From IMG/VR virus record IMGVR_UViG_3300029705_000029: 64,000 nucleotides of DNA, one strand, 5' to 3'. The position numbers were made by a program, and so were the translations under genes. Below, in pieces: positions 10,581-35,405 of the stretch (its first letter is position 1; every line of letters begins with the position of its first letter). The notes beneath the pieces were generated by a model. It made no database searches. It saw only the letters and a list, made by a program, of their open reading frames with translations, and was not told the origin of the DNA. Source of the stretch: a virus. Lineage: Duplodnaviria > Heunggongvirae > Uroviricota > Caudoviricetes.

Positions 10581-10597
10581 AATTACAACCTCTTCTC

Positions 10598-10615: not shown

Positions 10616-10672
10616 TACAATTATAGCACCACGGTACGTTGCTTTTCAATTGACCGAATAGACAAAGTTTGT

Positions 10673-17468: not shown

Positions 17469-17810
17469 TTAAATTTTTTCTTCATGCGCATATCTCCACA
17501 GCATTACGTTGCTTGCGCTAATGTCAGTAGGCATTGAAGTAAATACGATTTCCATCTCTTCTCCGCTAAAATCACAGACAATAATTCTATCTCCAATTTC
17601 TGGCATCTTATCTTCTGGATCAAACCACTCATGCTCTTCGTACTCAACATATTCGCGTTCAACTTTATAGCCAAGCATCTCAATTAGTCTAATCCACTCA
17701 TGATCTGGGACATTGTGTCCTTCGAAATGAAAATCTTCTCCGCAATTAACATCTAGAACTACCCAGTCGCCAATACCGTCAATAGTATATTTAATATAAG
17801 GTTTACTCAC
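17469..17810 (-). CDS. Hypothetical protein
   Basis: ORF track. Confidence 0.45.
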   Translation of the reverse strand: MSKPYIKYTIDGIGDWVVLDVNCGEDFHFEGHNVPDHEWIRLIEMLGYKVEREYVEYEEHEWFDPEDKMPEIGDRIIVCDFSGEEMEIVFTSMPTDISASNVMLWRYAHEEKI

Positions 17811-18235
17811 TTCAACATATCTCCAACAATTTTACTTGCAATGCTCATATCCATCTTGCCCTTGAAGTTTGCGCTCAGATACTTCATAATTTTACCCTTA
17901 TTCATTTCTACACCAGAGTTGCGAATAATTTCAGCAATCTCATCCTCATTAGTGATCAGACTGGGCGCAAACTCACAAATAATCTCCATCTGCTTCTTGT
18001 AATCTTCAAGTAGATCATGACGAGATTCTGGACAAGTGTCAATCATTTCCTGTGCGGTCTTCTTGGCTTTTAGGAGAACTTCATTAACAAGCGCTTCTGG
18101 AATATTATCTCTGCATCCATTGTCAATGGCTGCGTTCTTAATCTGTGCAATTGTAGTGGAGATAACGTTTTTGCGGAACTTGTCTCCTGATTTCATAGCG
18201 GCAATCATTGCCTGCTGTAGTGCTTCTAGTGTCAT
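17807..18235 (-). CDS. GatB/YqeY-domain protein
   Basis: MTLEALQQAMIAAMKSGDKFRK... N-terminus and overall pattern match the YqeY family. Confidence 0.6.
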   Translation of the reverse strand: MTLEALQQAMIAAMKSGDKFRKNVISTTIAQIKNAAIDNGCRDNIPEALVNEVLLKAKKTAQEMIDTCPESRHDLLEDYKKQMEIICEFAPSLITNEDEIAEIIRNSGVEMNKGKIMKYLSANFKGKMDMSIASKIVGDMLK

Positions 18236-18876: not shown

Positions 18877-20097
18877 TTAATTCCCAATCTCAATCAAATA
18901 CTTAATAGTCATCTGATCATTTCTATAAAACACAATTTCGTCATTTATCAGCATCCCCTTGTCCGCTTTTGCATGCAGACAATTACATTTAGGATTCTTG
19001 TTCTGCAGTACATTGTAGTTCAAATGATAACAACTACTATCATGCTGGTATACAACATAAGGAGTTCCATAGGCCACTTCAAACAACGCCATGTAAGCGA
19101 CATTGTTTCCACCATGTGCCCAATAAGAACCAGACAGCGAGGTGTATCCAATGGACTTTTGACACTTAGGGGCAAAGTAGATTCCATCTGAAAACATGGA
19201 GCCTGTGTATACAGCATTACTAGGACGAATCATAAGGCCAGTTTTAATAATGGAAAACCAATTCTCACTGCGGCTACCATGAAACAGCAATCTGGTGTCC
19301 TGAATATCATTCTCAGCAATAAACTTATCAAAGCGTTCCTGAGTCTTAAGGTTCTTAACTCTCCAAGCCCTTCTAAACTTGCCAGCGGATTCATTCATAA
19401 GCTTCTTAATGAGCGCAATATCATCCGCAGTAGTTTCTTCCATTTCAAGTCCAAGTTCTTCAAGAATAGTTTGCTGTTTCTTTTCTACATGCTCAACAGG
19501 TTCATGCTCAGGTTTCACATAAATCTGACCGCGCATAACGTCAAGAAGATCCTGTTCTTTGGAAATAATCTGTGCAAAGTCTTCTACTTTATCAGCTAGA
19601 TAATCTCTGACATTGCCCATCTTTCTCGGAATTACCGTAAACAGTTTGAGCAGCTTGTCATTGAACGCTTCGATTGTAGCATCGCCATTTGCCAGCTCAT
19701 CAATGATCTTCTGAGCCGCATCAACCATATCCTGAGTAACAGCAGATGCTTGAACGGTATAGTTCTTCTGAATGGTTTCGCGAGCTAGACCCTGAAGCTT
19801 TTCTACGATAGCTTTGATTGCTGCGTTTTCAATGTCTCTGTAATGGCTTTCAGGATTGGCAGAAGAGATTTTCTCTACCAAATCCTGCTTTAGGTCTGTT
19901 ACATCTTGATATCCCTTATTAAGCTTACTGGAAATTTGCGTGTTCCATTTAGACATGGGATAATATCTTGTGGTTTTAGTTGCATCAACTCGTCCGTACT
20001 CGACTCTAAACTGGTCACCTTCTGGAAAAAGATTATAATACTTATTGTTATTCGCAGTTGTAACCATAATAAGATAAGTGGGTCTAATCTCTGCCAT
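18877..20097 (-). CDS. Poly/mono-ADP-ribose polymerase-like protein (WGR domain plus PARP catalytic domain)
   Basis: The N-terminus has a WGR-like FRVEYGRVDATKT segment. The C-terminus reads LLFHGSRSENWFSIIKTGL...YTGSMFSDGIYFA...YMALFEVAYG, matching the PARP H-G-S / Y / E catalytic signature. Confidence 0.7.
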   Translation of the reverse strand: MAEIRPTYLIMVTTANNNKYYNLFPEGDQFRVEYGRVDATKTTRYYPMSKWNTQISSKLNKGYQDVTDLKQDLVEKISSANPESHYRDIENAAIKAIVEKLQGLARETIQKNYTVQASAVTQDMVDAAQKIIDELANGDATIEAFNDKLLKLFTVIPRKMGNVRDYLADKVEDFAQIISKEQDLLDVMRGQIYVKPEHEPVEHVEKKQQTILEELGLEMEETTADDIALIKKLMNESAGKFRRAWRVKNLKTQERFDKFIAENDIQDTRLLFHGSRSENWFSIIKTGLMIRPSNAVYTGSMFSDGIYFAPKCQKSIGYTSLSGSYWAHGGNNVAYMALFEVAYGTPYVVYQHDSSCYHLNYNVLQNKNPKCNCLHAKADKGMLINDEIVFYRNDQMTIKYLIEIGN

Positions 20098-20112: not shown

Positions 20113-20538
20113 TTAGAGTTCGCAAATTACAATCTCAACGTCCATGTCTTCAAATACTTCGCAAATGATTTCATAAACCTTGCTCCAATCTAAACGATCC
20201 AAGCCAGAAGCAATGCGTGGCATGGCCAGCTTGGCTACATTCAGAAACTCCATAAATTCTTTCATCATTTCCAGTGCGGCTCTTACGGTTTCATAAGTAG
20301 GCTTGTGCCAATATTTCTGCTTAGTAACAAGATTAAAAACGTTGTCTACTGGTAGCGCATCGCCACCACAATACTCATAATCAGGATAATTTCTGAACAG
20401 CTTAAATCGCATATTATAAACACTATCAAAAGTCTTTGCGATACCAGCTCCGAGTGCAAAGTCGGCAGAGATACAATGTGCTAGATAATAACCCTGGGGC
20501 ATAGTAAATAGGTCACGCTTTTCAGTAGTAATAGTCAT
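20113..20538 (-). CDS. Macrodomain ADP-ribosyl hydrolase of the TARG1/OARD1/DarG-like clade
   Basis: YLAHCISADFALGAGIAKTF...HKPTYETV...AMPRIASGLDRLDWSKVYEIICEVF matches the TARG1 motifs (AHCISxD..MGAGIA; MPRIGCGLDRLxW). Confidence 0.75.
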   Translation of the reverse strand: MTITTEKRDLFTMPQGYYLAHCISADFALGAGIAKTFDSVYNMRFKLFRNYPDYEYCGGDALPVDNVFNLVTKQKYWHKPTYETVRAALEMMKEFMEFLNVAKLAMPRIASGLDRLDWSKVYEIICEVFEDMDVEIVICEL

Positions 20539-20560: not shown

Positions 20561-20580
20561 CATTAATTTTGTATTGTTAC
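20561..20580 (-). promoter_or_regulatory. Conserved motif copy, upstream of the DHH gene
   Basis: Motif followed by TATAAAGGAG. Confidence 0.5.
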
Positions 20581-22181
20581 CAAACGTCTTCAAATTTAAA
20601 ATCATTCAAGATTAACTGTCTGTAATAAGTTCTTCCAAAATATCCACTATCAAGCTGTCCCACTCCATAAAATTCTTTATCTTCTAGGTCCCACATATCA
20701 TCCCATCCATTAAAATTCCACTTAATAAATGTGACATTTGGGGTTGTAATTTTGAGGTGTTTGCCGCCCGACATATTGCCAACTTCGTAATCAGATACCT
20801 CTCCAATCATAACCGTAATTGGAGCAAATCCAGAGCCAGAAATTTTATTAATATCCTTAATCTGTTTAATTAGGATATCTGTAACTTGCTCTGCGTCAAG
20901 CTGAATATCAATATCACAAGACTGAACAAATTCGACGTCTCTCAGTACATCTTCTATTTTGTTTTTAAATTCTTCAAATCTATTAATTGGTATAAATGCG
21001 CCTGCGGCCAGCTCATGGCCCACACAAGATCCAATTCCAGTATCATTTACTATCTTGGTAAAATTATCTATACCAATTGCTCTCATAGACCCAGCGTAAC
21101 TATTGCCTACAGTTCTGAGCACAAACAATGGACGCTGATATTTTTCTAGCAATTTGTTACCCATCAAACCTGCGACTTCTGCATCAACATCGACAAAGAA
21201 GTACATACACTTTTGGTCTAGCTGTGCGTCTCCTTGTCTAATTAGCTCTTCCATCTGATCCGCCACAATATCGTTTTGCTTTTCTTTGCATTTCTTTAGA
21301 TCACGAATAAGAGCATTTACTTCTTTTGCATCGTCAGATAGAAACATCCTCATGGCCTTTTTGTTTTCACTCATTCTACAGGCAGCGTTCGCAAGAGGGG
21401 CCAGACCAAAACTGACAGCTTTGGAATCAAACCCATAAGAACCATTAATTTTTGAAATAGCAAGGTTTCTTTGGTGGTTGAAACCCTGATAACAAATATA
21501 TCTGTTTTCTGCCGACTGTTCGGAAACATCGCACATATCAGCAATAATACCTGCCGCTGCTAGATCCCAGAATTCTTCTGAATAGTCGTTCCAAGTTACT
21601 TCATCAATGTACTGACAAAACTTGAATACGACACCTGCACCACTTAGTGCTGGATTTGGGTAGTTGTTAGCAGAACTTATCAGACAAAATGGTAAATTTG
21701 CATCAATCAGTCGCTGCTCAATTAGGTGATGGTCACACACAATCAGCTTTGCACCTGTGTTTAGGATATTTTTATATACTTCTGGATCGTTGTTAAGAGA
21801 GTCAACAATAATTAGTGTGGTATTTTTGTCCAACATTTCAATCGGAAAATCTTCCGCACCATGCTTTTTACCTTCATTAATATATGTATCAATATTGTCA
21901 GTAAAATTTCGCAAGTATCTCGTCATAATTGTACCAGATGATAGACCATCCTGATCAACGTCGAAGAATACCACAAAACGATTGTTATCTTCGATTGTTT
22001 TTAATACAATATTACATCCCTCTTCAAGCCCTTGCATTTCTTCAAAAGGGACCATTGAATCTTCTGGTGGAGTCATAAAGGTTTTGTAATTTTTAATACC
22101 TCTGCTTTCCATAAGAGCTTCAATGATTTCAAGATGATCCATGTCTCTGCCATCTATTTTAATGTTCCAATTTTTCTTCAA
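20577..22181 (-). CDS. DHH/DHHA1 phosphoesterase (RecJ-like exonuclease or nano-RNase family)
   Basis: DHH motifs FFDVDQDG, IVCDHH and DHHA1 GHELAAGA. Confidence 0.7.
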   Translation of the reverse strand: MKKNWNIKIDGRDMDHLEIIEALMESRGIKNYKTFMTPPEDSMVPFEEMQGLEEGCNIVLKTIEDNNRFVVFFDVDQDGLSSGTIMTRYLRNFTDNIDTYINEGKKHGAEDFPIEMLDKNTTLIIVDSLNNDPEVYKNILNTGAKLIVCDHHLIEQRLIDANLPFCLISSANNYPNPALSGAGVVFKFCQYIDEVTWNDYSEEFWDLAAAGIIADMCDVSEQSAENRYICYQGFNHQRNLAISKINGSYGFDSKAVSFGLAPLANAACRMSENKKAMRMFLSDDAKEVNALIRDLKKCKEKQNDIVADQMEELIRQGDAQLDQKCMYFFVDVDAEVAGLMGNKLLEKYQRPLFVLRTVGNSYAGSMRAIGIDNFTKIVNDTGIGSCVGHELAAGAFIPINRFEEFKNKIEDVLRDVEFVQSCDIDIQLDAEQVTDILIKQIKDINKISGSGFAPITVMIGEVSDYEVGNMSGGKHLKITTPNVTFIKWNFNGWDDMWDLEDKEFYGVGQLDSGYFGRTYYRQLILNDFKFEDVW

Positions 22182-22927
22182 ATCATGTCATCCTCCAGTA
22201 CTACACAATTAATTTTTCCACTATGAGCGCAACAAGCATCAAGCGCAATAAAACCATCACCATAAAATGGGTCAAACTTTGCATCTGCTCCGAACTCACT
22301 GCGGCCTTCAAGTTTTGCCCAGCCAGTGCTGCAATGCCAATGGCCAAAAACAAGTGTTTTATTAGGAAGCAAACCGCATTCTGCAAGCTCAAACGGATCA
22401 CCCCATCTTGCATCATCCCACTGTGTTGCATGAGCTTCACGCCAATTTTCCATCTTTGTGTAGTTTTTGCCCCGAAGATAATACGGAGGTAGAATACTAT
22501 CACATTCAAGCGGGACAAAGCTGTGAACGAAGATGTAATTCTTAGTTTCTAAATAATTTACCATGCCGTCAACAAACTTTAAAACCTTTGGATAGATTGC
22601 TATACAAGCTTCTTCAAATGTATTGGCGCTTGGGGCAAGATCAATAATTGTTTGGGCGGTACCATTGCTCCAATCGTGCCCCTGTGGATATTCGCGTGCA
22701 AGACAATCCATTATGAGATCTTCGTGATTTCCGCGTATTAGAATTTTGCGCTCCAGAGACGCAAGATAGTCTATAACTTTATGTGGCTGTCTGCCCCTAT
22801 CGGTATAATCTCCAAGCCCTACCAGAAAATGATTTTTATTATTTTGATCAAATCCCGCTTCATCAAGCGCTTTGCACATTTCATCATAGAACCCATGCAC
22901 GTCACTGATGCAAAACAACTTTGCCAT
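22178..22927 (-). CDS. Calcineurin-like metallophosphoesterase (lambda-PPase/ApaH-like)
   Basis: Motifs DVHG, GDYTDRG and GNHE. Confidence 0.75.
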   Translation of the reverse strand: MAKLFCISDVHGFYDEMCKALDEAGFDQNNKNHFLVGLGDYTDRGRQPHKVIDYLASLERKILIRGNHEDLIMDCLAREYPQGHDWSNGTAQTIIDLAPSANTFEEACIAIYPKVLKFVDGMVNYLETKNYIFVHSFVPLECDSILPPYYLRGKNYTKMENWREAHATQWDDARWGDPFELAECGLLPNKTLVFGHWHCSTGWAKLEGRSEFGADAKFDPFYGDGFIALDACCAHSGKINCVVLEDDMI

Positions 22928-22960
22928 CTATATCTCCTCCCATCTATAGCTATTATACAC

Positions 22961-22980
22961 CATTAATTTTGTATTGTCTA
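22961..22980 (-). promoter_or_regulatory. Conserved motif copy, class 1 (TAGACA-N17-TATAAT)
   Basis: Upstream of the metallophosphatase gene. Confidence 0.55.
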
Positions 22981-23034
22981 TTGACGCATTAAACAAATAT
23001 GGGCCGCAGTTTTACTACGACCCATACAATGTTA

Positions 23035-23232
23035 TCACTCCTGTCTAATGTGATAATAAAATTCTCCAGAGTTAGGATTCTCAACAGTCACAACACTACC
23101 GCCAAGCAGCATCATGTCTAGAGCGGCCAAAACGCGAACAGTGGGAAGATCAAGATCATACGAGATTTCTCTGGGCGTCTTATCTGCGTTGCCCTTAAGA
23201 TAGCTATAAATTTTATTAATAATATTTTCCAT
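23035..23232 (-). CDS. Small putative winged-helix DNA-binding protein
   Basis: 65 aa; pattern PREISYDLDLPTVRVLAALDMM. Confidence 0.4.
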   Translation of the reverse strand: MENIINKIYSYLKGNADKTPREISYDLDLPTVRVLAALDMMLLGGSVVTVENPNSGEFYYHIRQE

Positions 23233-23242
23233 TTTTCATTCT

Positions 23243-23260
23243 CCTTAATTTTGTATTGTT
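23243..23260 (-). promoter_or_regulatory. Conserved motif copy
   Basis: Upstream of 23035..23232. Confidence 0.45.
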
Positions 23261-23312
23261 GTTTGCAAACGTATTCATTATACTGTATTGCGGCGTGTAT
23301 GTCAAGTTAAGT

Positions 23313-24194
23313 TTAGTGTGCGGCTTTATCTGCTTCGTGGAGCAAATCAATGTACTGCTTAAGATATGTAGGTAGATTGTTGTAATACTTACTATTAAAG
23401 AATGGTTCCATATGGTTACAAATTAACCAAGCTACAAACGGAGTAACATTTCTAATTCCATAAGACATCCATGCTCCATAGTTGTTATGAAAGTAAAAAT
23501 GCGCTATATCACAAGGATTACCCTTCGCATCCACAAACGCTTTCACTGCAGGCTTGCCAATGTCATGTAGCCATGCGGCCCATTGTAGTTCAAAATCATT
23601 GGTGGTCTTTAGCATATATTGGTAAGCTGCTTGGCAATGATCATAAATGTTCAGAGTATGATGAGGATTGTCATGTGGAATCTTCATTTCATCTACCAAT
23701 ATCATTTCATAAATACCATCATCATATTTAACAGATTTTACAACTTCAATGTGGTCAATACCTTCGTCGTACCATGGAGCCTGAAAACGCTTGAGCATCC
23801 TGCCAATTACTTCTGGACCAACAGTACGCTCTCTTTCGGCATCTCTTCTAATACAATCTTCAACAGGTGCCCAGATAATATGTGCCTCAATTTTTACAAA
23901 CTTTGGACATGCTGAAATGATATAAGCGCGATCTTTGCGAGTGATGTTCGTTGCGTCATACAGCACATTCTGACCATTGTTTAGTGCTTCGATTGCTCTG
24001 GACTGCATTAGAGAGAACACTTCATGGTTATCACCCTGAATCGCTTCATTCCCCCACAGTTCTTTTCTGATAGAATCAGAAGAAAGATGAATTACATTGT
24101 CGTGAAACTTTGCGTATTCTTTGGCATAGTAGGTTTTACCTGAACCAGGGATTCCTACGAGTAGAATTAGGGTTGGTCTGTTCATTTTAATCAC
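23313..24194 (-). CDS. Polynucleotide kinase (P-loop) fused to an HD-domain phosphohydrolase
   Basis: N-terminal GIPGSGKTYYA, as in the T4 Pnk kinase domain. C-terminal HD motifs (HLNIY..H...WLHDIGK). Confidence 0.6.
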   Translation of the reverse strand: MIKMNRPTLILLVGIPGSGKTYYAKEYAKFHDNVIHLSSDSIRKELWGNEAIQGDNHEVFSLMQSRAIEALNNGQNVLYDATNITRKDRAYIISACPKFVKIEAHIIWAPVEDCIRRDAERERTVGPEVIGRMLKRFQAPWYDEGIDHIEVVKSVKYDDGIYEMILVDEMKIPHDNPHHTLNIYDHCQAAYQYMLKTTNDFELQWAAWLHDIGKPAVKAFVDAKGNPCDIAHFYFHNNYGAWMSYGIRNVTPFVAWLICNHMEPFFNSKYYNNLPTYLKQYIDLLHEADKAAH

Positions 24195-24206
24195 CTACTT
24201 GTTCTA

Positions 24207-24228
24207 TTAAAAATTGTGTTGTTTCTAA
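24207..24228 (-). promoter_or_regulatory. Degenerate motif copy (ATTAAAAATTGTGTTGTT)
   Basis: Upstream of the Pnk gene. Confidence 0.3.
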
Positions 24229-24326
24229 TTGTAAGTCATCAATACATATTTTAGAAAAATATGTATACGGGATTCGTATTAATGGAACATTAGCATATTT
24301 TATTCCTCATTAAAACATTTTGTTAT

Positions 24327-25772
24327 TTATTCTTCCTGTGCTTCTTCTAGGTCTGGTTCAAGTGCTTCGTCCTTGATAATGCCCTCAAGAACCTTGAAAG
24401 AGAAGTTCTTATGCTTGTAGACCGCAATATTGGGACGATTTACGATACGAGCCACTACACCTTCGCGAATATGAGTCTTACCAATTGGGTCGGGGCCATC
24501 AAAGTATTCTTCAACCTTACGCAGGACATATTCGCCAGGGTTAACATGGATGCGCCTAGTTGCAACCCAGTTTTCAGCGAAATCAACAGCAGAATATTCT
24601 TTAATATATTCAGGAATAATGAATCGTTCAAATACGGGCACAGCATTTACGCCCATCTGTTCACAACGCATGCGCATCTGATCAGGAGACATCTCTACGA
24701 CATCACCGTCTTCGTTAGTCATAGTCATGCGGTAAACATAAACTTCGCACTTAGGAGGAAATACCTCAGTTGGAGATCCATTAGCAACATAAAAGCCATC
24801 TGGCTCAACAGAGTGAGGTTCCCAGCCACCAAGAGGTTCGCAACCATAAGAGAATACTGTTTCTTCACCGTACTGCTTAGAGAATTCTTTGTCCTTAATC
24901 TTGGAATTCTTTACAGATGCCATGATAGGGGTATCCTCGTTTACGAAGCCTACGATTTCGTAGTAGACCGTTTCGTTTTTACGTAGCTTACCTTCAAACT
25001 TCTTTGCCATCTCTAGTCTGAAATTGTTATCATCATAATATCCACCATCATGCTTGTCATCAAGAACAACACGACGAGTACCAGTTACATAACCATATTC
25101 CACATATTCCTTGCCAGGGCGACGACGAATCTTATCCCATAGAGTCTGCGGCTTACGATGATGCAGCGGCAGATAACCAGTACGACCGCTAGTTCCATGC
25201 ATCTTGAGCGTTAGCTCTACAATGTCTCCAGCCTTAAACTCACCCAGATTGTATGCCAGCTGTGCAGTATCAACATGCTCATAGAAAGTAGGTGCAAAAT
25301 TAGCCTTTGCTCTCTTGCCGCCACCACCATGATAAGTATGAGATGCATGATTGCGCCTTGGAATATACTTCTTGCAGATCTCCTTACCATTTAGCATAGA
25401 AATTGTATCGCCTTCCTTGAGATCAGAAATCTTACAGAAGTCAGCTAGGCAAGTTAGCGGAAGGAATAGTCCATCAGACTTTTCACCGCGAAGCTTTAGT
25501 GCCTTAATGTTGCGCTTTTCAGGGTCTAGATAACCACCACATAGATTGCCATTTTCATCCTTGCGACGCACAAGATCATTCGCCTTGCAAAATTCCTCAG
25601 ATAGCTGACCATCTACAGGGAAGTAAACGCCAAGCTGTCCTTCCATATAATCCATGGATACGATTACAGAGTTTCCAAAACATTCGCCAATCTGTAGGCG
25701 ATCTGCGTTAGAATGCTTGCGCACATTCTTTAGAATAGTAACAAAACCAGTGTATGCCATAATTCTTGCCAC
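24327..25772 (-). CDS. RNA ligase (Rnl2-like KxHGT nucleotidyltransferase) with an N-terminal tRNA-binding OB domain
   Basis: The N-terminus (KNVRKHSNADRLQIGECFG) resembles the Myf/CsaA tRNA-binding domain. Motif I is TLKMHGTSGR (KxHGT). Confidence 0.6.
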   Translation of the reverse strand: MARIMAYTGFVTILKNVRKHSNADRLQIGECFGNSVIVSMDYMEGQLGVYFPVDGQLSEEFCKANDLVRRKDENGNLCGGYLDPEKRNIKALKLRGEKSDGLFLPLTCLADFCKISDLKEGDTISMLNGKEICKKYIPRRNHASHTYHGGGGKRAKANFAPTFYEHVDTAQLAYNLGEFKAGDIVELTLKMHGTSGRTGYLPLHHRKPQTLWDKIRRRPGKEYVEYGYVTGTRRVVLDDKHDGGYYDDNNFRLEMAKKFEGKLRKNETVYYEIVGFVNEDTPIMASVKNSKIKDKEFSKQYGEETVFSYGCEPLGGWEPHSVEPDGFYVANGSPTEVFPPKCEVYVYRMTMTNEDGDVVEMSPDQMRMRCEQMGVNAVPVFERFIIPEYIKEYSAVDFAENWVATRRIHVNPGEYVLRKVEEYFDGPDPIGKTHIREGVVARIVNRPNIAVYKHKNFSFKVLEGIIKDEALEPDLEEAQEE

Positions 25773-26420: not shown

Positions 26421-26831
26421 TTACCCCTCGTAAATTTCAAATAGCCGTCCCATTGACATACCATTTGCTCTTCCAAGATCTACAGCCAAAGCACACATAT
26501 TGGACTCCATACCAACACCAAGACCTTTGTTAAAATAATCAATCAAAGAATCATATGTGTCGTTGCCGTCCCGCGTCTCCCACCCAATCATAAACTGTCC
26601 GTTCACTGTAAAGAAATCTGCAGGAGTTCCCATATTGCTGCCCTTGGAACTGCGCCACCAACCGAACTCTTCTGGCCACTCAATAACATCTTCAAGAGTC
26701 TTAAGATCCTTCTTGTTGATCTCCCAAACCTCATAATAGGGCTTATGTGAACTCTTATAAGTTCTTTTTGCGTCAATCTTTAGCACTTTAAATGCTCTAT
26801 GTAGTCCATCTCCACCAAAAAGTTCTGCCAT
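26421..26831 (-). CDS. Hypothetical protein
   Basis: ORF track; TAATG overlap with the upstream gene. Confidence 0.45.
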   Translation of the reverse strand: MAELFGGDGLHRAFKVLKIDAKRTYKSSHKPYYEVWEINKKDLKTLEDVIEWPEEFGWWRSSKGSNMGTPADFFTVNGQFMIGWETRDGNDTYDSLIDYFNKGLGVGMESNMCALAVDLGRANGMSMGRLFEIYEG

Positions 26832-27610
26832 TACTTATTCTCCTTTACCTTTAGATATTCTCTCATTGCCTTAATCATGTTGAGAATTTCTTTTTTATGT
26901 ACATTATTTTCCACCCAGTCAAAATAATCTGGCTCACTATTATAAACATCAAGATAGCGCTTGCCCTTATGCTTGCCAAAATCGATCACGGTGTCCTCAC
27001 TAAAAGTAATCGCCGCAGGCTGTTCTACAACAATATTGTCAAAGTCCAAGCTAATACTCTTTCTAGAAGCAAGATAGTCTGCCACATGAACCATTCTTGC
27101 ATACTTGTTGTTGGGCTTCGGAAGCTCAACATTACTCTTCTTATCCGTGTTCCACTGACCCATATGCTTTGAGATTGTATCTGCTACTAGTTCAAGTTCA
27201 TCATGATTTAGATACTTGCCATCAAAACTTCTAATAACATCTGCCATTAGCACTGGATGATCGAACTTAGTGTACTTAGACTTTTCATAGTCTTCCTGAG
27301 ATCCACTCTTGCGTCCGTCATGAATTAGTCCCGAAAGTCTAATAAGATCTCGTTCTCTACTTGTGAGCTTGCTGTTATACTGCTCTAGTTCCAAAAAGAA
27401 ATTCAAGAATCTTACTACTGCAACCTGATGTCTCATAAGCCCCATTTCACCAAGTGAGTACGCTGGATGATACTTGCCTGTACTAGACGCTCCTACGCGC
27501 CAAATATAATCAGGGAGATCTTCAAGTAACACCATGGCAAATTCCTTGATGTCTTCGTTTTCAAACGTGTTTAAAATCGGTTGCACAAAATCGAGTCTTT
27601 CTTGCGTCAT
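26831..27610 (-). CDS. HD-domain phosphohydrolase
   Basis: H...LSGLIHDGRKSG...D pattern; C-terminal FGKHKGKRYLDV motif. Confidence 0.55.
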   Translation of the reverse strand: MTQERLDFVQPILNTFENEDIKEFAMVLLEDLPDYIWRVGASSTGKYHPAYSLGEMGLMRHQVAVVRFLNFFLELEQYNSKLTSRERDLIRLSGLIHDGRKSGSQEDYEKSKYTKFDHPVLMADVIRSFDGKYLNHDELELVADTISKHMGQWNTDKKSNVELPKPNNKYARMVHVADYLASRKSISLDFDNIVVEQPAAITFSEDTVIDFGKHKGKRYLDVYNSEPDYFDWVENNVHKKEILNMIKAMREYLKVKENK

Positions 27611-27796: not shown

Positions 27797-28213
27797 TTAC
27801 TCTAAAATGTTTTCATGGGAATAACCTTCATTTGTTGTATAATAAATGTCTCTGATTCCGAGTTCTGTAATCAGCTTCATGCAGCTTGGACAAGGACGCG
27901 CAAGTAGTGCATTTCCTTTTTGTCCAGTTCTATATACATATAGACTAACATGTTTAAAGTCAATATCTCCACGTCCAATTAGCGGCTTAAGACATGCTAG
28001 TTCTGCGTGTATGCAGTGCATACTATCCTCGGAGAATCTATAGACATTATATTTCTTTTGAATAGGTGCAGTCTTACGTGAGTTAAATCCGCTTGAAATA
28101 ATGCGATGTTTGTAAACAGCTACCGCACCAATTTTAATTCTAGGAAAATCAGCAAGCTGAGAGACGGCTTTCGCCGCCTCAAAATATGCCTTGTGAGTCT
28201 TACTCAGTCTCAT
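27797..28213 (-). CDS. dCMP/cytidine-family deaminase
   Basis: HAELACL (H-A-E) and PCPSC zinc-ligand motifs. I trimmed the start to the internal Met (MRLSK) at 28213, which follows a GAGGAG ribosome-binding site. Confidence 0.7.
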   Translation of the reverse strand: MRLSKTHKAYFEAAKAVSQLADFPRIKIGAVAVYKHRIISSGFNSRKTAPIQKKYNVYRFSEDSMHCIHAELACLKPLIGRGDIDFKHVSLYVYRTGQKGNALLARPCPSCMKLITELGIRDIYYTTNEGYSHENILE

Positions 28214-28397
28214 CCAACGACTCCTCGTCCACAATATCAGGTTCATAATCATAAAGGCGCTTATCTTTGCGATCCTTGCCCCTATCATATGCGTTAAACT
28301 TCTTAAATACTTTTGCTACATGGTTAATTGGCCAGCTGGCACGTTCTTCTGCAGTAGGTTCCTGTGGTACATTCTTCTTATCAGTCATCGTATTCAA
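28200..28397 (-). CDS. Hypothetical acidic protein
   Basis: ORF track; 14-nt overlap with the trimmed deaminase start. Confidence 0.35.
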   Translation of the reverse strand: MNTMTDKKNVPQEPTAEERASWPINHVAKVFKKFNAYDRGKDRKDKRLYDYEPDIVDEESLDETE

Positions 28398-28587: not shown

Positions 28588-28606
28588 TATTAATTTTGTA
28601 TTGTTA
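28588..28606 (-). promoter_or_regulatory. Conserved motif copy
   Basis: Upstream of 28381..28575. Confidence 0.45.
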
Positions 28607-29617
28607 TTTTAGTTTAAATACACAATCCTTGTATAGCCTCTCCCAGACATCTTGTCTATCCATTGGACTTTCTTTTTCATCAAGCAGGTTGTCTTTGTCG
28701 ATTACTGCGTATACATTAATTCCATCTATAAACATGTTGGCAATATCTTGCAGTTCATCTTCTTCGACATCTTTGTCAAACGCGAGAATAGGTGCACACC
28801 CAGTGCGCGTGATAAGTTCAACTTGATATTTGCTAATTGTTTTGCCACCAGTTGAGACGGCATTTCTATAGCCATATTCCGCAAGTTTTAGTACACTCTT
28901 TTCGCTTTCAACTACGATAATACACTTATTGTTTTTGATAAACTCTCTATTTTGCCAATAGCCATACAACACTCTACTTTTGTTGCATTTTTCGAGATAC
29001 ATAAAACGAGGATGCTGTTCGTCTGAATCTCCAAAGTATCTGCCTTTTACACCAACAAGTGAACCAATTGAATCAAAGATTGGAATTGCTATATAATTTG
29101 TTTGTTCATCATATGCTATCCTAAATTCAGCTTGAGTTGCAAGACTTATGCCTTCATCTGTCCACATTTTATTGCCATATGGAAGGTAATACGAAAGCAC
29201 TTGTTCCGAAATCGGTTTTAAAGGTATGTCATCTTCGTTGTGACAATCTTTATTAAGTTCTATTAACATTTTTAGCACCTGTAATTCTTCTAGTACATTG
29301 GCGTTTTCTGAATAATAATCTAGCCCCAATATATTGTGTACATACCTAAGTGCTTCAGGGAATGAACAATCTTGATAGAAAGAAATTAGATCAAAGATAT
29401 CAGCGACACGTTTGTTCTTGGTAATATTGCGAGTGTAATTTACAGTAATAAGAGTTTCGTTGTTGTACACTGTGATTGCTGAACTGTTATCCCCATCAGG
29501 GTTAGATGCAGTAAAATAGCCGTCATGCTCTCGAATATTACCACAGCCCAAATCTTCTAGAATTGTCTCTATGTAATTATTGTCAACAATATACTCCTTA
29601 AGCTCGTCAACTCGCAT
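28604..29617 (-). CDS. DnaG-like DNA primase (TOPRIM domain)
   Basis: TOPRIM motifs IIVVESEKSVLKL (E) and PILAFDKDVEEDE (DxD). Confidence 0.55.
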   Translation of the reverse strand: MRVDELKEYIVDNNYIETILEDLGCGNIREHDGYFTASNPDGDNSSAITVYNNETLITVNYTRNITKNKRVADIFDLISFYQDCSFPEALRYVHNILGLDYYSENANVLEELQVLKMLIELNKDCHNEDDIPLKPISEQVLSYYLPYGNKMWTDEGISLATQAEFRIAYDEQTNYIAIPIFDSIGSLVGVKGRYFGDSDEQHPRFMYLEKCNKSRVLYGYWQNREFIKNNKCIIVVESEKSVLKLAEYGYRNAVSTGGKTISKYQVELITRTGCAPILAFDKDVEEDELQDIANMFIDGINVYAVIDKDNLLDEKESPMDRQDVWERLYKDCVFKLK

Positions 29618-29657
29618 TTTTGTCCACCTGCTATAGTTTTATATGAATATTGTACCA

Positions 29658-29678
29658 CATTAATTTTGTATTGTCAAG
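29658..29678 (-). promoter_or_regulatory. Conserved motif copy, class 1 (TTGACA-N17-TACAAT)
   Basis: Upstream of the primase gene. Confidence 0.55.
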
Positions 29679-30294
29679 AGTCTTTTTCAATTAATAGCCA
29701 AACGCCGCCAGATGTAACACCCATTGATAGCGCATCAGAATGAGTTTCAACTGCGATATCAATTTGCTTATTCTTCACTGCACCACCGCAGTCATCTGCT
29801 GTGCGCCATCCATAACCTTCGATATATACTTTACTTCCATATGGAATTACCGTTGGGTCCACCGCAATAGTGCGTCCAGCTGTTACTTGTGTGCCTGTTG
29901 CGGTAATACCATCACCTGTGCCGCAAATATGAGATCGTAGTTCGCAACAGTAGTGAGTCAGCTTAAACTCTCCAATATAAACTAATTCATATTCAATATA
30001 TTTTAGCGCTAAAATCGTCTCATTTGCTTCGCCTAAGGATTTGGTCGCGGAGTCCAATTCGGCGGCTAATTTCTCTGATTTTGTATACTCTAACTGTAAG
30101 TTTTCGGTAACAGAAGCGAGCTCTTCCTGTGTCGCTTGCAATAAAGTGCTCTGTTCGTTCAGCTTATTGGTCGTATCTGCCAGCTCACTTCTTGATGAAG
30201 CGCACCAAGCGAACACAGAAAGTACAGCTACAGCTGCAGTAACTCCAATTATACTAAATATTGTGTCTTTAACCATCATGTCTAATCCTTTCAA
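29674..30294 (-). CDS. 3D-domain (MltA/YocH-like) cell-wall-active protein with N-terminal TM and coiled coil
   Basis: THYCCELRSHICGTGDGITATGT...AGRTIAVDPTVIPYGSKVYIEGYG...ADDCGGAVK. Confidence 0.65.
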   Translation of the reverse strand: MKGLDMMVKDTIFSIIGVTAAVAVLSVFAWCASSRSELADTTNKLNEQSTLLQATQEELASVTENLQLEYTKSEKLAAELDSATKSLGEANETILALKYIEYELVYIGEFKLTHYCCELRSHICGTGDGITATGTQVTAGRTIAVDPTVIPYGSKVYIEGYGWRTADDCGGAVKNKQIDIAVETHSDALSMGVTSGGVWLLIEKDS

Positions 30295-31402
30295 CCAATT
30301 TTGTTATAATGTCTGCTGCGGTGTCAATTTCTTGCTCTGTGTTTTCGCGTCCAAGAGTAATACGAACGCTACTCAGTGCTTCTTTGTTTGACAAACCAAT
30401 TGCCTTGAGCACATGAGATGGCGTTGGCTCATACGATTGGCATGCGGATCCTTTGCCGATATATAAATCATATAGCCCACACAGCGTTACCAATCTTTCA
30501 GCGTCAACTCCATCAATAGTAAGATTAATGTTATTCGCAAGCCTGCTTGATCCAACTGAGACCCCATTTAAAGTTGTACCTGAAATTTGCAGTAGTTTGT
30601 TTAATAGTTTGTCACGCAAACTTGTAATGCGATCCTGTACGCCAAACATATTATGGTTGCGAGTAATACTTAGCGCCTCGCCCATTCCTGCAATAGCTGC
30701 TGTGTCATATGTTCCTCCGCGCAGTTCATTTTCCTGTGATCCATAAATAATTGGTGTCAGTTCAATTCCATTTTTAACGTATAAAAATCCTGCACCACGA
30801 GGTCCACAAAACTTTTGAGCAGATACGGATACCATGTCAACACCAAGTTCTTTTACGTCAATACGCTGCTCTGGGTACAACTGAGTTGCGTCTGTGTGTA
30901 AAATGCAATTACAATCATGCACAGTTTGCGCAATAGCTTTAAGATCTTGTATTGTGCCAATTTCTCCGTTTGCCGCACCGATAGATACTAGAGATTTATG
31001 AGCTGGAAACTTAGTGAGGCTGCGAGAGTATTTTAGAAATGTTGGTCGAAGTTTTACATAACCTTGCTCATCATTTTCTATAAACATTGCGCGTGGCATT
31101 TTATAAATAGATGCATGTTCCATACGCGTAGTCCACCAACGAGCACCATTATGTGCTTTGAGATAGCCCTGAATTGCCATACTATTGGATTCGCATGCGC
31201 CGCTTGTGAAGATAATTTCTGTTGGGTCTGCGTTAATATCTTCTGCAACTTGCACTCTCACACCTTCAATAATTTTCCTAGCGCTATCACCAATTGCATA
31301 TGGACTTGACGGGTTGCCCCAACATGTTTTCATAACATGAGCCATAGTAGCAATAACTGACTCATATGGTTTTGTAGTCGCTGCATTGTCAAGATAAATC
31401 AA
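30269..31402 (-). CDS. Cysteine desulfurase (NifS/IscS class V aminotransferase)
   Basis: YLDNAATT N-terminus, SVSAQKFCGPRGAGFLYV (PLP lysine region) and the active-site loop GKGSACQS. Confidence 0.75.
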   Translation of the reverse strand: MIYLDNAATTKPYESVIATMAHVMKTCWGNPSSPYAIGDSARKIIEGVRVQVAEDINADPTEIIFTSGACESNSMAIQGYLKAHNGARWWTTRMEHASIYKMPRAMFIENDEQGYVKLRPTFLKYSRSLTKFPAHKSLVSIGAANGEIGTIQDLKAIAQTVHDCNCILHTDATQLYPEQRIDVKELGVDMVSVSAQKFCGPRGAGFLYVKNGIELTPIIYGSQENELRGGTYDTAAIAGMGEALSITRNHNMFGVQDRITSLRDKLLNKLLQISGTTLNGVSVGSSRLANNINLTIDGVDAERLVTLCGLYDLYIGKGSACQSYEPTPSHVLKAIGLSNKEALSSVRITLGRENTEQEIDTAADIITKLVERIRHDG

Positions 31403-31428
31403 ACATATTTCCCCTTTCCATTAATTTT

Positions 31429-31446
31429 GTACTGTTATTATACCAT
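31429..31446 (-). promoter_or_regulatory. Conserved motif copy
   Basis: Upstream of the cysteine desulfurase gene. Confidence 0.45.
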
Positions 31447-31490
31447 ATATTTGCATTTTGTCAACATAAAAAAATAAAAGGGTGGGAGGA

Positions 31491-32483
31491 TTACTCCTCT
31501 CCACCCATTGGAATATCAATAATTGGAAGTGCGCCAGAACCCATCATATAAGTTGGAAGGTTGCCAGTCCAGTTCTGTGCGTACTCATAAGCAACAACTT
31601 CGTTTGTGATAGCTTCTGCAAGAGCCTTAGTAGCTTCCGCTTCCTTTTCGCCCTTGTAAGCAATTGCATCAGCCTCAAGCTGTGCTACTTCAAAGTCGGC
31701 CTGAGCCTTAATGCGAGCGGCTTCAGCTTCTGCGTTTGCGTTAATTTCACGAATTGCAGCATCATTTTCGGCCTGAATCTTAGTGCGCTCAGCAGACTGT
31801 CGAGTACGCTCTGTTTCCATCTGCTGCTGAGTCTTGTCACGAAGAGCTTCCTGCTCGGCCACCTGCTTTGCTTCGATTGCAGCAGTGTAAGCATCAGAGA
31901 AATCAAAGTCATCAATTACAACAGCGACTTCAATACCATACTTAGACGCGAAAGTAGAAACCGTGGCATCAATGTTACTCTGCAGCTGAGTGCGTAGTTC
32001 AGTCATGTTTTCTGCCTCAACAAGACCAAATTCTGCCTTGATTGCGTTGTTAACCTGCGGCTTAATTAGAATGTTGAAATAATCAATACCAACAGTCTTG
32101 TAGATATTAGGCGCGGAAGATGAAAGCAGATTGTACTTTACAGTGTAAGTGTAAACAACTTCCTGTAGGTCAGAAGAAAAGCACACGTTTCGTTCAGTAA
32201 AAATCTGTTCCTTGTTCGTCATAGTCGTGATATTCTGCCATGGCGCGTGAATGTTCATGCCTTCTGGTAGGTTTCTATCTTCTACGCGACCAAAGGTGGT
32301 AAGAATACCAGTATGACCAGTAGGCACCGTAGAGATACAAGAACTACCAATAATAACCACCGCAAGAATTACTGCGATTACGCTTGCAATACCACCGATG
32401 CGGCTACATTCGAGCTTGGATGCAACAATGGGGATTACAATTGCGGCGATTAGAAGTAGGATACCGATTACGACACTAAACAT
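31491..32483 (-). CDS. SPFH/band-7 (prohibitin/HflK-like) membrane protein
   Basis: N-terminal TM, TGHTGILTTFGRV SPFH core and an Ala/Glu-rich coiled-coil C-terminus. Confidence 0.7.
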   Translation of the reverse strand: MFSVVIGILLLIAAIVIPIVASKLECSRIGGIASVIAVILAVVIIGSSCISTVPTGHTGILTTFGRVEDRNLPEGMNIHAPWQNITTMTNKEQIFTERNVCFSSDLQEVVYTYTVKYNLLSSSAPNIYKTVGIDYFNILIKPQVNNAIKAEFGLVEAENMTELRTQLQSNIDATVSTFASKYGIEVAVVIDDFDFSDAYTAAIEAKQVAEQEALRDKTQQQMETERTRQSAERTKIQAENDAAIREINANAEAEAARIKAQADFEVAQLEADAIAYKGEKEAEATKALAEAITNEVVAYEYAQNWTGNLPTYMMGSGALPIIDIPMGGEE

Positions 32484-32639: not shown

Positions 32640-32713
32640 TGGAGCATCGTACCAGATTCGGACTGGCACTCCAACCTTGGAAGGGTTGTGTGCTACCATT
32701 ACACCAACGATGC
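32640..32713 (-). tRNA. tRNA-Gly (anticodon TCC)
   Basis: Minus-strand GCATCGT...anticodon loop CTTCCAA...T-loop TCCGAAT...ACGATGC-T-CCA. Confidence 0.8.
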
Positions 32714-32774
32714 ATATTTGCATAAGCTCTAGTTTAAACACCTACACGACGTGAACATACTTATGCTGGTAGGC

Positions 32775-32910
32775 TTGTCCCTCTGGGACTCGAACCCAGA
32801 CTATGCCTTGCTAGGGCCTACGGCTTATTGGTGACAGATTGTAGATTTGCACTACAATATCCTAAATGAATCTGCCAAGGCCGTGGCTCTCACCATTGAG
32901 CTAAGGGACA
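32775..32910 (-). tRNA. Atypical ~136-nt tRNA-like gene with a ~50-nt insertion in the anticodon arm (type II-like long variable arm)
   Basis: Canonical 7-bp acceptor (TGTCCCT/AGGGACA), U8, A14, D-arm GCTC/GAGC and T-arm CTGGG-TTCGAGT-CCCAG. The anticodon-stem halves ACGGC and GCCGT are separated by about 55 nt that fold into an extended hairpin (ATTGTAG-TGCAAAT-CTACAAT). Confidence 0.5.
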
Positions 32911-33446
32911 TTATAAAGCGGTTTTTCTTTCGGACATCTCCTATTGAGGTATGGATTACCGAAAACCACTAAGGTAGGCACATGTGCGTCACTTTCCTCA
33001 ACAAGCTAAAACACTTTAAAAGCCTTGGTGGGCAAGGTTGGTGCCGCCCCAACTACTCCCGAAGGAAACGGGTTTACAGCCCGTCGCGTTTGCTGATTCG
33101 CTACTTGCCCAAGGTGTCACGCCATTTTGAGACTAACGTGCTGTCTTGGCTTTTTGTTGTCGTTGTTTCACAGGTGCCATAACCAACGCCTTTCTCATGT
33201 TGCCACATATTAAGCCTGTGTTATTGAGAAATAGTAAGAGTCAATACCAGCTTGGTGCACGTGGAGGGCCACGATCCCTCAATCCCTTACGGGCACTGGT
33301 TTTTGAGACCAGCTTGTATGCCAATTCCAACACACGTGCGCATGCCCAACACTTGTCCATGCACCCACGAAAATTCGCACGTCAGCTGTTGGCACTGAAC
33401 AGAAACCATTTGAGCTCAGAGGCCGTTTACTGTCATATTACCTCTC

Positions 33447-33583
33447 TGGTGCTGGATACCAGACTTGAACTGGTACGGTATATTTCAACCAGCGGATTTT
33501 TTGTGATAGGCATGAGTGATGACCTCACTACTGCTCTGGCAACCCACCAAGTCCGCTGTGTCTGCCGATTCCACCAATCCAGC
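33447..33583 (-). tRNA. Atypical ~137-nt tRNA-like gene with a ~55-nt insertion in the anticodon arm; CCA encoded
   Basis: Perfect 7-bp acceptor GCTGGAT/ATCCAGC followed by A-CCA; T-arm ACCAG-TTCAAGT-CTGGT; 3-bp D-stem; anticodon-stem halves GCGGA and TCCGC separated by about 55 nt. Confidence 0.5.
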
Positions 33584-34232
33584 ATATCGGGCAGTTTTAC
33601 ATCTTGCCCAGGATGCCGATTAAAACTTCGGACCATCCTCCAAGTTGGAATAAGCAAATACAATCATAAGCAATTTCCTCCTTTGGATTATTTACTGCTG
33701 CTAACTAGAACGTCGAAACATAACTCCAATTACGAATAAGGAGCGACCTTTGTCCAGCGGACGCTATGCCCGAAATCCTTACAACCTAACAGTGTGGGAG
33801 CGACCTCGGTTAAAACTTTTTATTATATTGAGCTTGCTACTTACCAGCCACGGAGACAACCTATGGGCCTTGACCACCAACCCAAACTCTTTATCGTGGA
33901 TTTGGTAAATCTTTTGTGGACTACGCATTCTTCTGCGATCTTAGCCCTCTTTACAACCTTAATAAACGACCTTTGATCAAATCAATCTTTGAAGTTTGAA
34001 CGTTAAATTTTGAACCTTGATCCTTAATCTTTACAGCAACACTTATAATATATATCATATATTTTAAATCTTTATCATGCCTAAAAGATTTACAGTATAA
34101 GATTCTTGCTTAACGGGCAAGTCTTCTATTAATTGAAGATACTTTCTTTAACTTATTAATATCACTCTAAGTATCAAAAAGAAGAGATAAGCAGTCGTTT
34201 AAGGTTTCCGATAAGTAGCAAGCAAGTTTGCC

Positions 34233-34979: not shown

Positions 34980-35003
34980 TAGAGTTTTTAAATCTTAACA
35001 AAA

Positions 35004-35080
35004 TGGCGTCCCAGGAGAGATTCGAACTCCCGACACACGGCTTAGAAGGCCGTTGCTCTATCCTACTGAGCTACTGGGAC
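35004..35080 (-). tRNA. tRNA-Arg (anticodon TCT)
   Basis: GTCCCAG...CTTCTAA...TTCGAAT...CTGGGAC-G-CCA. Confidence 0.8.
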
Positions 35081-35329
35081 ATAATATGGTAGGGTATCTC
35101 CAACCTACCGCGAACTACTAACAACATCACTTGCGTTTATTCTTTAGCAAGCATCCAATCAAGGCTGTGATGAACCCTGCTTGCCGCCGAAGACTAACTT
35201 GAATTATAAAGCCTAATAGTTTGTGGACTTGAACCACACAGCGCTCTTCCACTGGCCATCCTGCAACGTACCATATAACTTTTCGAGCAGTTTCTTCTCA
35301 ACTGGTTTAACGTGCGAAGTCAGCACGGC

Positions 35330-35405
35330 TGGTGGAGATGATGGGACTCAAACCCACGACTTTTACCTTGCAAGGGTAACACTCTATCAACTGAGTTACA
35401 TCCCC
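35330..35405 (-). tRNA. tRNA-Ala (anticodon TGC)
   Basis: GGGGATG...CTTGCAA...TTTGAGT...CATCTCC-A-CCA. Confidence 0.8.

Follow-up and report, generated by a model that had tools for sequence, protein, structure and literature searches.

A stretch of 64,000 nucleotides from a phage of the class Caudoviricetes (IMG/VR record IMGVR_UViG_3300029705_000029), which in its entirety we call the window, encodes two neighboring proteins on its minus strand: an ATP-dependent RNA ligase and Pnk-HD, in which a predicted 5′-OH polynucleotide kinase occupies the N-terminal half and an HD phosphoesterase the C-terminal half. We propose, with a probability of roughly 0.6, that the ligase and Pnk-HD act as a cassette of two genes that heals RNA ends and seals them. 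Understood in this way, the locus is an ordinary phage healing-and-sealing cassette, one more example of a known principle, and RNA healing and sealing is a known phage counter to tRNA-cutting defenses. We establish here the domain identities of the two proteins, their intact catalytic motifs, the polynucleotide-kinase fold of Pnk-HD, and a recurrent linkage with RNA-repair genes.

An initial annotation of the region, made from the sequence and its open reading frames (ORFs), had likened this combination of kinase, phosphoesterase and ligase to the T4 Pnkp/Rnl pathway and had assigned a nearby metallophosphoesterase (MPE) and a DHH-domain protein to the same RNA-repair island. The T4 logic held up: the SSDxxR motif of the kinase is invariant, the ligase motifs are intact, and RlaP, Thg1-like or Rnl1 genes stand beside Pnk-HD in related phages. 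The single island did not, as the MPE and DHH genes have their own promoter and terminator and lie near Pnk-HD in only 5 and 10 of 62 related loci, respectively. All of the ORFs it named are where it placed them, and its domain calls agree with Pfam.

Domains and catalytic motifs of Pnk-HD and the ligase

Pfam assigned both halves of the 293-aa Pnk-HD ORF, with AAA_33 at residues 9–140 (E 6.7e-22) and HD at residues 184–268 (E 7.6e-6), bearing out the kinase–HD fusion of the initial annotation in one ORF. The same kind of scan found no HAD_PNKP domain, the T4-type DxDxT phosphatase, in Pnk-HD. An AlphaFold2 model built on 30 homologues reached a predicted local distance difference test score (pLDDT) of 91 and a predicted template modeling score of 0.89. 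The closest structural matches of its kinase domain were polynucleotide kinases; thymidylate and adenylate kinases scored only 9.5–11.7, and Foldseek agreed. P-loop residues G11–K17 are invariant in 30 Pnk-HD homologues, as are S36, D37 and R40 of the SSDxxR motif, which aligns with the NRDDFR motif of Pnkp1. The Asp and Arg of this motif (SxDxxR) are the catalytic residues of polynucleotide kinases, where they activate and bind the 5′-OH end. The initial annotation had itself raised the possibility of a paralogue of deoxynucleoside monophosphate (dNMP) kinases; in silico, fold and motifs lie nearest to polynucleotide kinases, and the modeled domain looks like one of these rather than a dNMP kinase.

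The HD domain carries all six positions of the H..HD..H..H..D signature, each invariant among homologues. A profile of this half matched the Aquifex A-adding tRNA nucleotidyltransferase (3wfp), in its HD region, at E 1e-12 and PhnZ at E 4e-5, and the NCBIfam model for CCA tRNA nucleotidyltransferase (TIGR02692) matched Pnk-HD at E 5e-7. The HD domain of E. coli Cca is described, in the work of Yakunin 2004 as cited in PMC2190708, as a 2′,3′-cyclic phosphodiesterase, 2′-nucleotidase and phosphatase. Since Pnk-HD resembles a Cca-type HD domain with that activity, a role in healing 3′ ends is reasonable to expect.

Closest to Pnk-HD in composition are the HD-Pnk enzymes, which join HD and a P-loop kinase in one polypeptide: phage RM378 PNK, Runella slithyformis HD-Pnk and Deinococcus radiodurans PNKP. 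The HD domain of RM378 PNK is a demonstrated 3′-phosphatase (PMC1997131), and in Runella the HD-Pnk gene has that of an ATP-dependent ligase as its neighbor (PMC6097658). RM378 p110 is homologous to Pnk-HD in both domains (kinase E 7e-8, HD E 1e-3; ~24–27% identity), but their order is reversed, with HD at 35–94 and kinase at 189–325 in p110 against kinase at 1–150 and HD at ~165–290 in the window. Pnk-HD is therefore a domain-order variant of RM378 PNK and not its orthologue. Proteins with the Pnk-HD layout are abundant, amounting to 2,737 clusters at E≤1e-10 and 626 at E≤1e-30 (50%-identity representatives), mostly 290–330 aa and matched at full length, and GenBank records of Bacillus phages already annotate Pnk-HD as "polynucleotide kinase". 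This domain order appears to be widespread yet biochemically uncharacterized in the literature. Replacement of the usual Pnk phosphatase by an HD domain had been called unusual in the initial annotation, a view at odds with the 626 clusters and with the HD-type PNKPs already known (PMC1997131, PMC6097658).

The ligase was recognized by several profiles. PHROG 968, "RNA ligase", matched it at E 2e-65, and in the 481-aa ORF Pfam returned RNA_ligase PF09414 (E 9.6e-6, 26.3 bits against a cut-off of 27) together with the PHA02142 OB-fold domain PF21189 at the N-terminus (E 1.7e-4). TIGR02306, the NCBIfam model for DraRnl, aligned with residues 13–197 at E 1e-11, although its 44.4 bits compare with a curated family cut-off of 151 and the N-terminal half alone aligns. 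A profile of diverse phage ligases, A1, matched NgrRnl at E 2.6e-5, colinear from the N-terminus into motif I (residues 8–176); here the OB domain aligns with NgrRnl residues 8–120, and invariant K131 is the counterpart of NgrRnl Lys121. Profile A1 also matched residues 109–210 of the T4 Rnl2 nucleotidyltransferase (NTase) at E 1e-4, and the C-terminal half of the ligase is closest to this NTase. Searching the PDB with the single ligase sequence gave a spurious match to a single-stranded DNA (ssDNA)-binding protein and a weak one to NgrRnl, so that a profile of diverse homologues was needed.

Two proposals of the initial annotation fell at the ligase N-terminus. It had described an Rnl2 ligase fused to a tRNA-binding domain of the Myf/CsaA type, and had regarded the fusion as unusual. 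tRNA_bind PF01588 had no match in the N-domain of the window ligase even at E≤10, and it was found in two of eight homologues, weakly (best E 1.3e-3); PF21189 was found in all eight, at a best E of 4.3e-9. An OB domain at this place is what defines the Rnl5 family, to which the TIGR02306 and NgrRnl matches point. In NgrRnl, the OB domain binds the ATP γ-phosphate, positions the pyrophosphate leaving group, and is required for lysine adenylylation (PMC7261155).

To assess the catalytic motifs, we used an alignment of 11 phage homologues with 28–80% identity to the window protein. The KMHGTSG motif reported in the initial annotation is present as motif I, and its lysine, K186, is invariant, as are H188, G189, T190 and S191. 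E268 of motif III is likewise invariant, as are E433-G434 of motif IV and K449 and K451 of motif V. Motif I of the phage ligase profile falls opposite the "KLDGSS" segment of NgrRnl, in which Lys170 is the motif I nucleophile and Asp172 contacts the catalytic metal (PMC7261155). Beyond motif V there is a 26-residue acidic tail and nothing more, which leaves the ligase without a C-terminal domain, including the one that is the signature of Rnl2.

The ligase shares features with more than one characterized family. With Rnl5 (DraRnl, NgrRnl) it shares an OB domain followed by an NTase domain and no C-terminal appendage, but its motif I reads KxHG, as in T4 Rnl2, where Rnl5 has KxDG; it is also ~140 residues longer than NgrRnl, with insertions in the NTase domain, and falls well short of the DraRnl family cut-off (44 versus 151 bits). 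With Rnl2 (T4 Rnl2, REL1) it shares the KxHG-type motif I and a related NTase, but not the C-terminal domain. T4 Rnl1 carries a C-terminal tRNA-specificity domain that the window ligase lacks, having the N-terminal OB domain instead. By sequence, then, the ligase is best described as Rnl5-like in architecture within the broad Rnl2/PF09414 superfamily. It is homologous to gp162 of mycobacteriophage Omega, and phages with DraRnl homologues include mycobacteriophages (PMC4408790). As the phage has a separate NAD-dependent DNA ligase, the Rnl5-like ligase is not the replicative one.

For both proteins the start codons adopted here are probably the true ones (Table 1). In each case a Shine–Dalgarno site ahead of the ATG, AAGGTGG for the ligase, contains the GTG that the ORF finder had chosen, and the resulting lengths of 477 aa (ligase) and 290 aa (Pnk-HD) equal those of identical database proteins.

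Gene neighborhoods of Pnk-HD in related phages

The ligase and Pnk-HD genes are adjacent in the isolated Bacillus phages Kirov and PBC2 and likewise, from tblastn coordinates, in vB_BcoS-136. Lysinibacillus phage LC76P1 has the order ligase, RlaP nucleotidyltransferase (PF10127), Pnk-HD. In Microbacterium phage Jacko, a ligase of the same family adjoins a T4-type Pnk-HAD (PF25109, E 1e-38). Among metagenomic relatives, the place of the ligase is taken by one of the Rnl1 type (PF09511) in L008, and a Thg1-like gene comes directly after Pnk-HD in L015. Ligase types and phosphatase types thus swap around a constant theme, the classic signature of a functional cassette.

To put numbers on this linkage, we scanned 80 IMG/VR loci with Pnk-HD relatives (33–67% identity) by phmmer over ±8 kb, which yielded 62 non-redundant architectures; because the loci share phylogenetic history, the counts make them look more independent than they are. 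A ligase of any kind lies within 8 kb of Pnk-HD in 35 of the 62. It is Rnl5-like in 22 and Rnl1-like in 13, and the two types never occur together, where ~4.6 co-occurrences would be expected if they were independent. RlaP is present in 36 loci, 25 of them within 300 nt upstream of Pnk-HD, and a Thg1-like gene in 21. At least one of ligase, RlaP and Thg1-like is found in 51. RecJ (10/62), macrodomain (8/62), PARP (5/62) and MPE (5/62) complete the list.

Relatives that combine ligase, RlaP, Pnk-HD and Thg1-like genes correspond to the RlaP/Thg1-like phage RNA repair clusters described previously (Iyer et al. 2021, PMC7824862). That survey also notes HD-like and calcineurin-like phosphatases, PARPs and macrodomains of jumbo phages in RNA-repair and NAD contexts. 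The lineage sampled here consists of abundant uncultured phages of ~150–175 kb that pair Pnk-HD now with Rnl5-like, now with Rnl1-like ligases, often together with RlaP and Thg1-like genes. The interchangeable ligases offer a natural series for comparing the repair targets of the two types. What Rnl5 ligases do physiologically is still called uncharted (PMC5397189), and the regularity with which phages pair such a ligase with an end healer is a concrete, testable clue.

In L015 (176..8739), an NAD+ salvage block lies between ligase and Pnk-HD and comprises isochorismatase/nicotinamidase-like, PRPP synthetase-like, NAMPT and NAD synthase genes.

A proposed healing-and-sealing mechanism and its alternatives

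In the mechanism we propose, a host or competitor ribonuclease would leave 2′,3′-cyclic-phosphate (or 3′-phosphate) and 5′-OH ends. The HD domain of Pnk-HD would remove the cyclic or 3′ phosphate to give a 3′-OH, and its P-loop kinase domain would phosphorylate the 5′-OH. ATP would be positioned with the aid of the N-terminal OB domain of the ligase, as in NgrRnl; the ligase would attach AMP to its own K186, pass it to the 5′-phosphate, and seal the break. MPE, RecJ, macrodomain and PARP would not be needed. Such a pathway would resemble T4 Pnkp and Rnl1 in function; the phosphatase of T4 is a HAD/DxDxT acylphosphatase, whereas that of the window is a metal-dependent HD domain.

Most likely, the substrates are tRNAs or further structured RNAs of translation that host defense nucleases have cut. 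Three features make tRNA the likeliest: the tRNA-end enzymes linked to Pnk-HD in relatives (Thg1-like, RlaP, Rnl1), an HD domain of the tRNA-nucleotidyltransferase type, and the 11 tRNA genes of the phage itself. The tRNA array lies ~7 kb from the repair pair, and several of its isoacceptors are known targets of anticodon nucleases. Damage by such nucleases may be the specific target. With an architecture of the Rnl5 type, the ligase may favor nicks held within a duplex or a stem. From the domains, motifs and linkage described above we infer the enzymatic activities and the substrate of the pair, and a role in counter-defense from the T4/PrrC paradigm (PMC2610378, PMC7824862).

Several observations weigh against this proposal. 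Characterized Rnl5 enzymes seal duplex nicks and not broken loops, and the phenotype known for DraRnl is one of DNA repair (PMC4408790, PMC5397189), so that a tRNA anticodon loop is not an obvious substrate for the window ligase. In motif I, a histidine replaces the metal-binding aspartate of Rnl5. The AlphaFold2 model of the ligase, built from 30 homologues all at least 73% identical, had a pLDDT of 54.6, too low to characterize its fold or its ~140 extra residues, and the ligase is classified here from sequence profiles. Much of the neighborhood evidence comes from one phage lineage and is partly shared synteny, and the 8 kb on either side of Pnk-HD yielded no ligase in 27 of the 62 loci. 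Finally, the 64-kb window contains no RlaP or Thg1-like gene, both of which occur in relatives; it carries a minimal or reduced form of the repair cluster.

What the pair repairs could instead be DNA, or nicks in RNA–DNA hybrids: Pnk-HD would heal DNA ends bearing 5′-OH and 3′-phosphate groups and the ligase would seal nicks with a short ribonucleotide patch on the 3′ side, the two acting with RecJ, PARP and macrodomain in phage replication, recombination, or recovery from nuclease attack. DraRnl, the founder of Rnl5, protects D. radiodurans from ionizing radiation and speeds genome reassembly, and an operon of LigB, PARG and HD-Pnk adjoins its gene (PMC5397189); Runella HD-Pnk, too, is described as a DNA/RNA end-healing enzyme (PMC6097658), and in the window RecJ, macrodomain and a PARP1/2-like protein are encoded within 4 kb downstream. 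The commonest partners of Pnk-HD, however, are RNA-specific (RlaP, Thg1-like and Rnl1-type, at 36, 21 and 13 of 62 loci, versus 10, 8 and 5 for RecJ, macrodomain and PARP), its HD domain resembles tRNA nucleotidyltransferase modules, a consensus promoter and a terminator stand between the pair and RecJ/PARP, and the phage has a LigA of its own. We consider repair of DNA or hybrids plausible but unlikely. A broader version would take the whole stretch from ligase to PARP as one end-processing system in which reversible ADP-ribosylation is coupled to healing, resection and ligation. One sub-lineage has a tight array of ligase, macrodomain, PARP, RlaP and Pnk-HD, in this order, on the same strand and with minimal or overlapping spacers (L033, 3867..8876; also L022–L025). 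Independent parallels exist in the Deinococcus operon and in Runella, where ligase and HD-Pnk cluster with Tpt1 (PMC6097658), and in the window and three relatives RecJ, macrodomain and PARP follow within a few kb. Set against these are the low counts of PARP and macrodomain near Pnk-HD, promoter and terminator signals that split the region into at least three units, and two relatives in which RecJ-macrodomain-PARP lies 2–3 kb from the ligase and Pnk-HD genes and hence seems a separate module. A single system of this extent strikes us as distinctly improbable.

Alternatively, the targets of Pnk-HD and the nearby phosphoesterases might be free nucleotides or second messengers, whether for dNMP metabolism or to degrade defense signals, with the ligase unrelated. 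The region does hold nucleotide-metabolism genes such as a dCMP deaminase, the HD, DHH and metallophosphatase families each include phosphodiesterases of nucleotide signals, and MPE weakly matches ApaH (E 9e-9). Yet the kinase fold ranks polynucleotide kinases well above nucleoside monophosphate and dNMP kinases, the alignment of the DHH protein with RecJ spans its full length, and a PADLOC scan returned no defense-system match for Pnk-HD or the ligase. This explanation would also not account for why Pnk-HD is found so closely and repeatedly with RNA ligases, RlaP and Thg1-like genes, and we give it very little credence. Healing and sealing of RNA by the ligase and Pnk-HD remains our preferred reading.

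Surrounding genes, transcription signals and the phage

All genes of the region lie on the minus strand, and transcription therefore runs from high to low coordinates. The initial annotation was right about which genes adjoin, but its "followed by" and "upstream" are reversed for this strand, on which ligase, Pnk-HD, the 65-aa ORF, MPE and the DHH gene are read in that order. In the sense of transcription, the full sequence is a second HD-domain protein (HD/ExoX_C), two small ORFs, ligase, Pnk-HD, the 65-aa ORF, MPE, RecJ, macrodomain, the PARP-like protein, and a YqeY-domain protein (Table 1).

Table 1. Coordinates of the repair genes, surrounding genes and signals in the window
Feature	Position	Strand	Remarks
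Replication genes	3680..12625 and 28604..32483	-	PHP-domain Pol III alpha, PIF1/UvrD-like helicase, NAD-dependent DNA ligase with BRCT, Toprim primase
NAD-dependent DNA ligase (LigA)	10673..12625		Separate phage gene
PARP1/2-like protein	18877..20097	-	Regulatory helical and catalytic domains of PARP1
Macrodomain	20113..20538	-	TARG1/OARD1-like
RecJ-like 5′-3′ ssDNA exonuclease	20577..22181	-	DHH/DHHA1, 534 aa; start overlaps MPE stop by 4 nt
MPE	22178..22927	-	Lambda-phosphatase/NinI-like, 249-aa ORF
Promoter	22952..22980	-	11/12 match; ahead of MPE
Terminator hairpin	22997..23027	-	14-bp stem; after 65-aa ORF
65-aa ORF	23035..23232	-	Own promoter and strong ribosome-binding site; set apart from repair pair
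Sigma-70 promoter	23277..23305	-	TTGACA-17-TATAAT, 12/12 match; just past Pnk-HD stop
Pnk-HD	23313..24185	-	290 aa from ATG 24185 (probable start); ORF finder 293 aa
HD phosphoesterase domain	23316..23693	-	Residues ~165-290; HD dyad H207-D208 at 23562..23567
Kinase domain	23736..24185	-	Residues 1-150; P-loop GIPGSGKT 24132..24155; catalytic SSDSIR 24066..24083
ATP-dependent RNA ligase	24327..25760	-	477 aa from ATG 25760 (probable start); ORF finder GTG 25772 (481 aa)
Ligase motifs IV and V	24408..24464	-	E433-G434; K449, K451; invariant in 11 sequences
Ligase motif I	25185..25205	-	KMHGTSG; K186 predicted adenylylated lysine
Ligase N-terminal OB domain	25455..25733	-	About residues 10-102; PF21189
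Second HD-domain protein	26831..27610	-	ExoX-like C-terminal motif; PHROG 5889, function unknown
dCMP deaminase	27797..28288		Nucleotide-metabolism gene
tRNA array, 11 genes	32640..36947	-	Gly-UCC, Tyr-GUA, Leu-CAA, Arg-UCU, Ala-UGC, Ser-GCU, Ser-CGA, Thr-UGU, Gln-UUG, Asn-GUU, Lys-UUU

Promoters and terminators were called as consensus matches only. From base composition, ~0.02 matches to all 12 promoter positions would be expected by chance in the stretch, and the promoter at 23277..23305 appears to mark the 3′ boundary of the ligase/Pnk-HD unit. Between Pnk-HD and MPE, positions 22952..23305 hold a tiny self-contained transcription unit of promoter, 65-aa ORF and terminator; the ORF itself had no match in Pfam, PHROG or PADLOC. 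The signals suggest at least three units in the region: ligase and Pnk-HD; the small ORF; and MPE, RecJ, macrodomain and PARP.

MPE resembles lambda phosphatase, as the initial annotation had noted (Metallophos E 3.3e-14, PHROG 246 E 3e-33, PDB 1g5b E 3e-8), and all calcineurin-type motifs are present (DVHG, GDYTDRG, GNHE, GHWH). Its place in the repair island is the part that did not stand, in view of its own promoter and terminator and its rarity near Pnk-HD. Lambda phosphatase has 2′,3′-cyclic phosphodiesterase activity (PMC2190708), which makes a role for MPE in healing possible, as a candidate accessory 2′,3′-phosphoesterase. Pnkp/Hen1 and Pnkp1-Rnl-Hen1 systems (Clostridium thermocellum, Capnocytophaga gingivalis) fuse a calcineurin-type metallophosphatase to the kinase and add an Rnl4-type ligase and Hen1; the window has no Hen1, and its metallophosphatase has a gene of its own in another transcription unit. 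The CthPnkp-type model TIGR04075 matched MPE weakly (E 1.5e-5, model positions 185–308 only), and PHROG 246, like PHROG 8238, includes kinase–MPE fusions. An origin of MPE as a split-off Pnkp phosphatase domain was considered and left unassigned, as its nearest isolate relatives are stand-alone phosphatases of Enterococcus phages and it lies near Pnk-HD in 5 of the 62 loci.

The DHH protein had been proposed as an end phosphatase or a second-messenger phosphodiesterase and proves to be a full-length RecJ exonuclease. TIGR00644 aligned residues 18–527 with model positions 3–545 (E 7.7e-78; 262 bits, below the 397-bit equivalog cut-off), PDB RecJ 8y30 matched at E 2.7e-27 and PHROG 2484 at E 1e-97, and relatives carry a RecJ_OB domain. 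On the strength of this full-length colinearity, we rejected a nanoRNase or cyclic-dinucleotide phosphodiesterase. Of four relatives sampled, three share with the window contig the order RecJ, macrodomain, PARP, and the recurrence of this order apart from the ligase and Pnk-HD genes, 2–3 kb away in two of them, suggests a separate module. From its position and signals, RecJ appears to belong with MPE, macrodomain and PARP and not with the repair pair.

Human TARG1 was a full-length match to the macrodomain (E 3.7e-23), which also matched DarG in PADLOC (1.6e-12). Directly downstream, the PARP-like protein matched the two PARP1 domains at E 6e-11 and has an apparent H-Y-E triad (HGS, GIYF, DEIVFY). 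Together they form a predicted writer/eraser pair for ADP-ribosylation in the phage. Their placement between ligase and Pnk-HD in L033 echoes the LigB-PARG-HD-Pnk operon of Deinococcus and the Runella cluster, which prompts the idea that PARP and macrodomain are functionally coupled to the repair genes, an idea that we regard as doubtful. If it were true, reversible ADP-ribosylation of nucleic-acid ends could serve as a repair step or as a shield from host nucleases; alternatively, junction phosphates could be removed in an NAD+-dependent manner, followed by clean-up of ADP-ribose phosphate products, in the repair of RNA or DNA breaks.

The second HD-domain protein lies near Pnk-HD in 24 of the 62 loci and may be an unrecognized member of the repair neighborhood; a PDB sequence search with it gave no significant match.

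The source phage has a genome of ~171.5 kb, retrieved repeatedly from metagenomes, and an identical Pnk-HD gene occurs on metagenomic contigs of 171,495–171,516 bp. Among 50,697 phage records, megablast found no match to the region; relatives were found at the protein level. In the genome collection, the full-length relatives nearest to Pnk-HD, L099 and L100, are on contigs of 147 kb and 166 kb that are apparently whole phage genomes. These are binned into metagenome-assembled genomes of gut Prevotella and Paludibacteraceae, and the binning points to a gut Bacteroidales host. A Firmicutes-type host is suggested by strong Shine–Dalgarno sites, by sigma-70 consensus promoters, and by the nearest isolates, which are phages of Bacillus, Lysinibacillus and Enterococcus, and the two lines of evidence disagree. 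Elsewhere in the window, a class-V aminotransferase and an SPFH/Band-7 protein adjoin the tRNA array, and the GatB/YqeY-domain protein (17807..18235) follows PARP both in the window and in several relatives.

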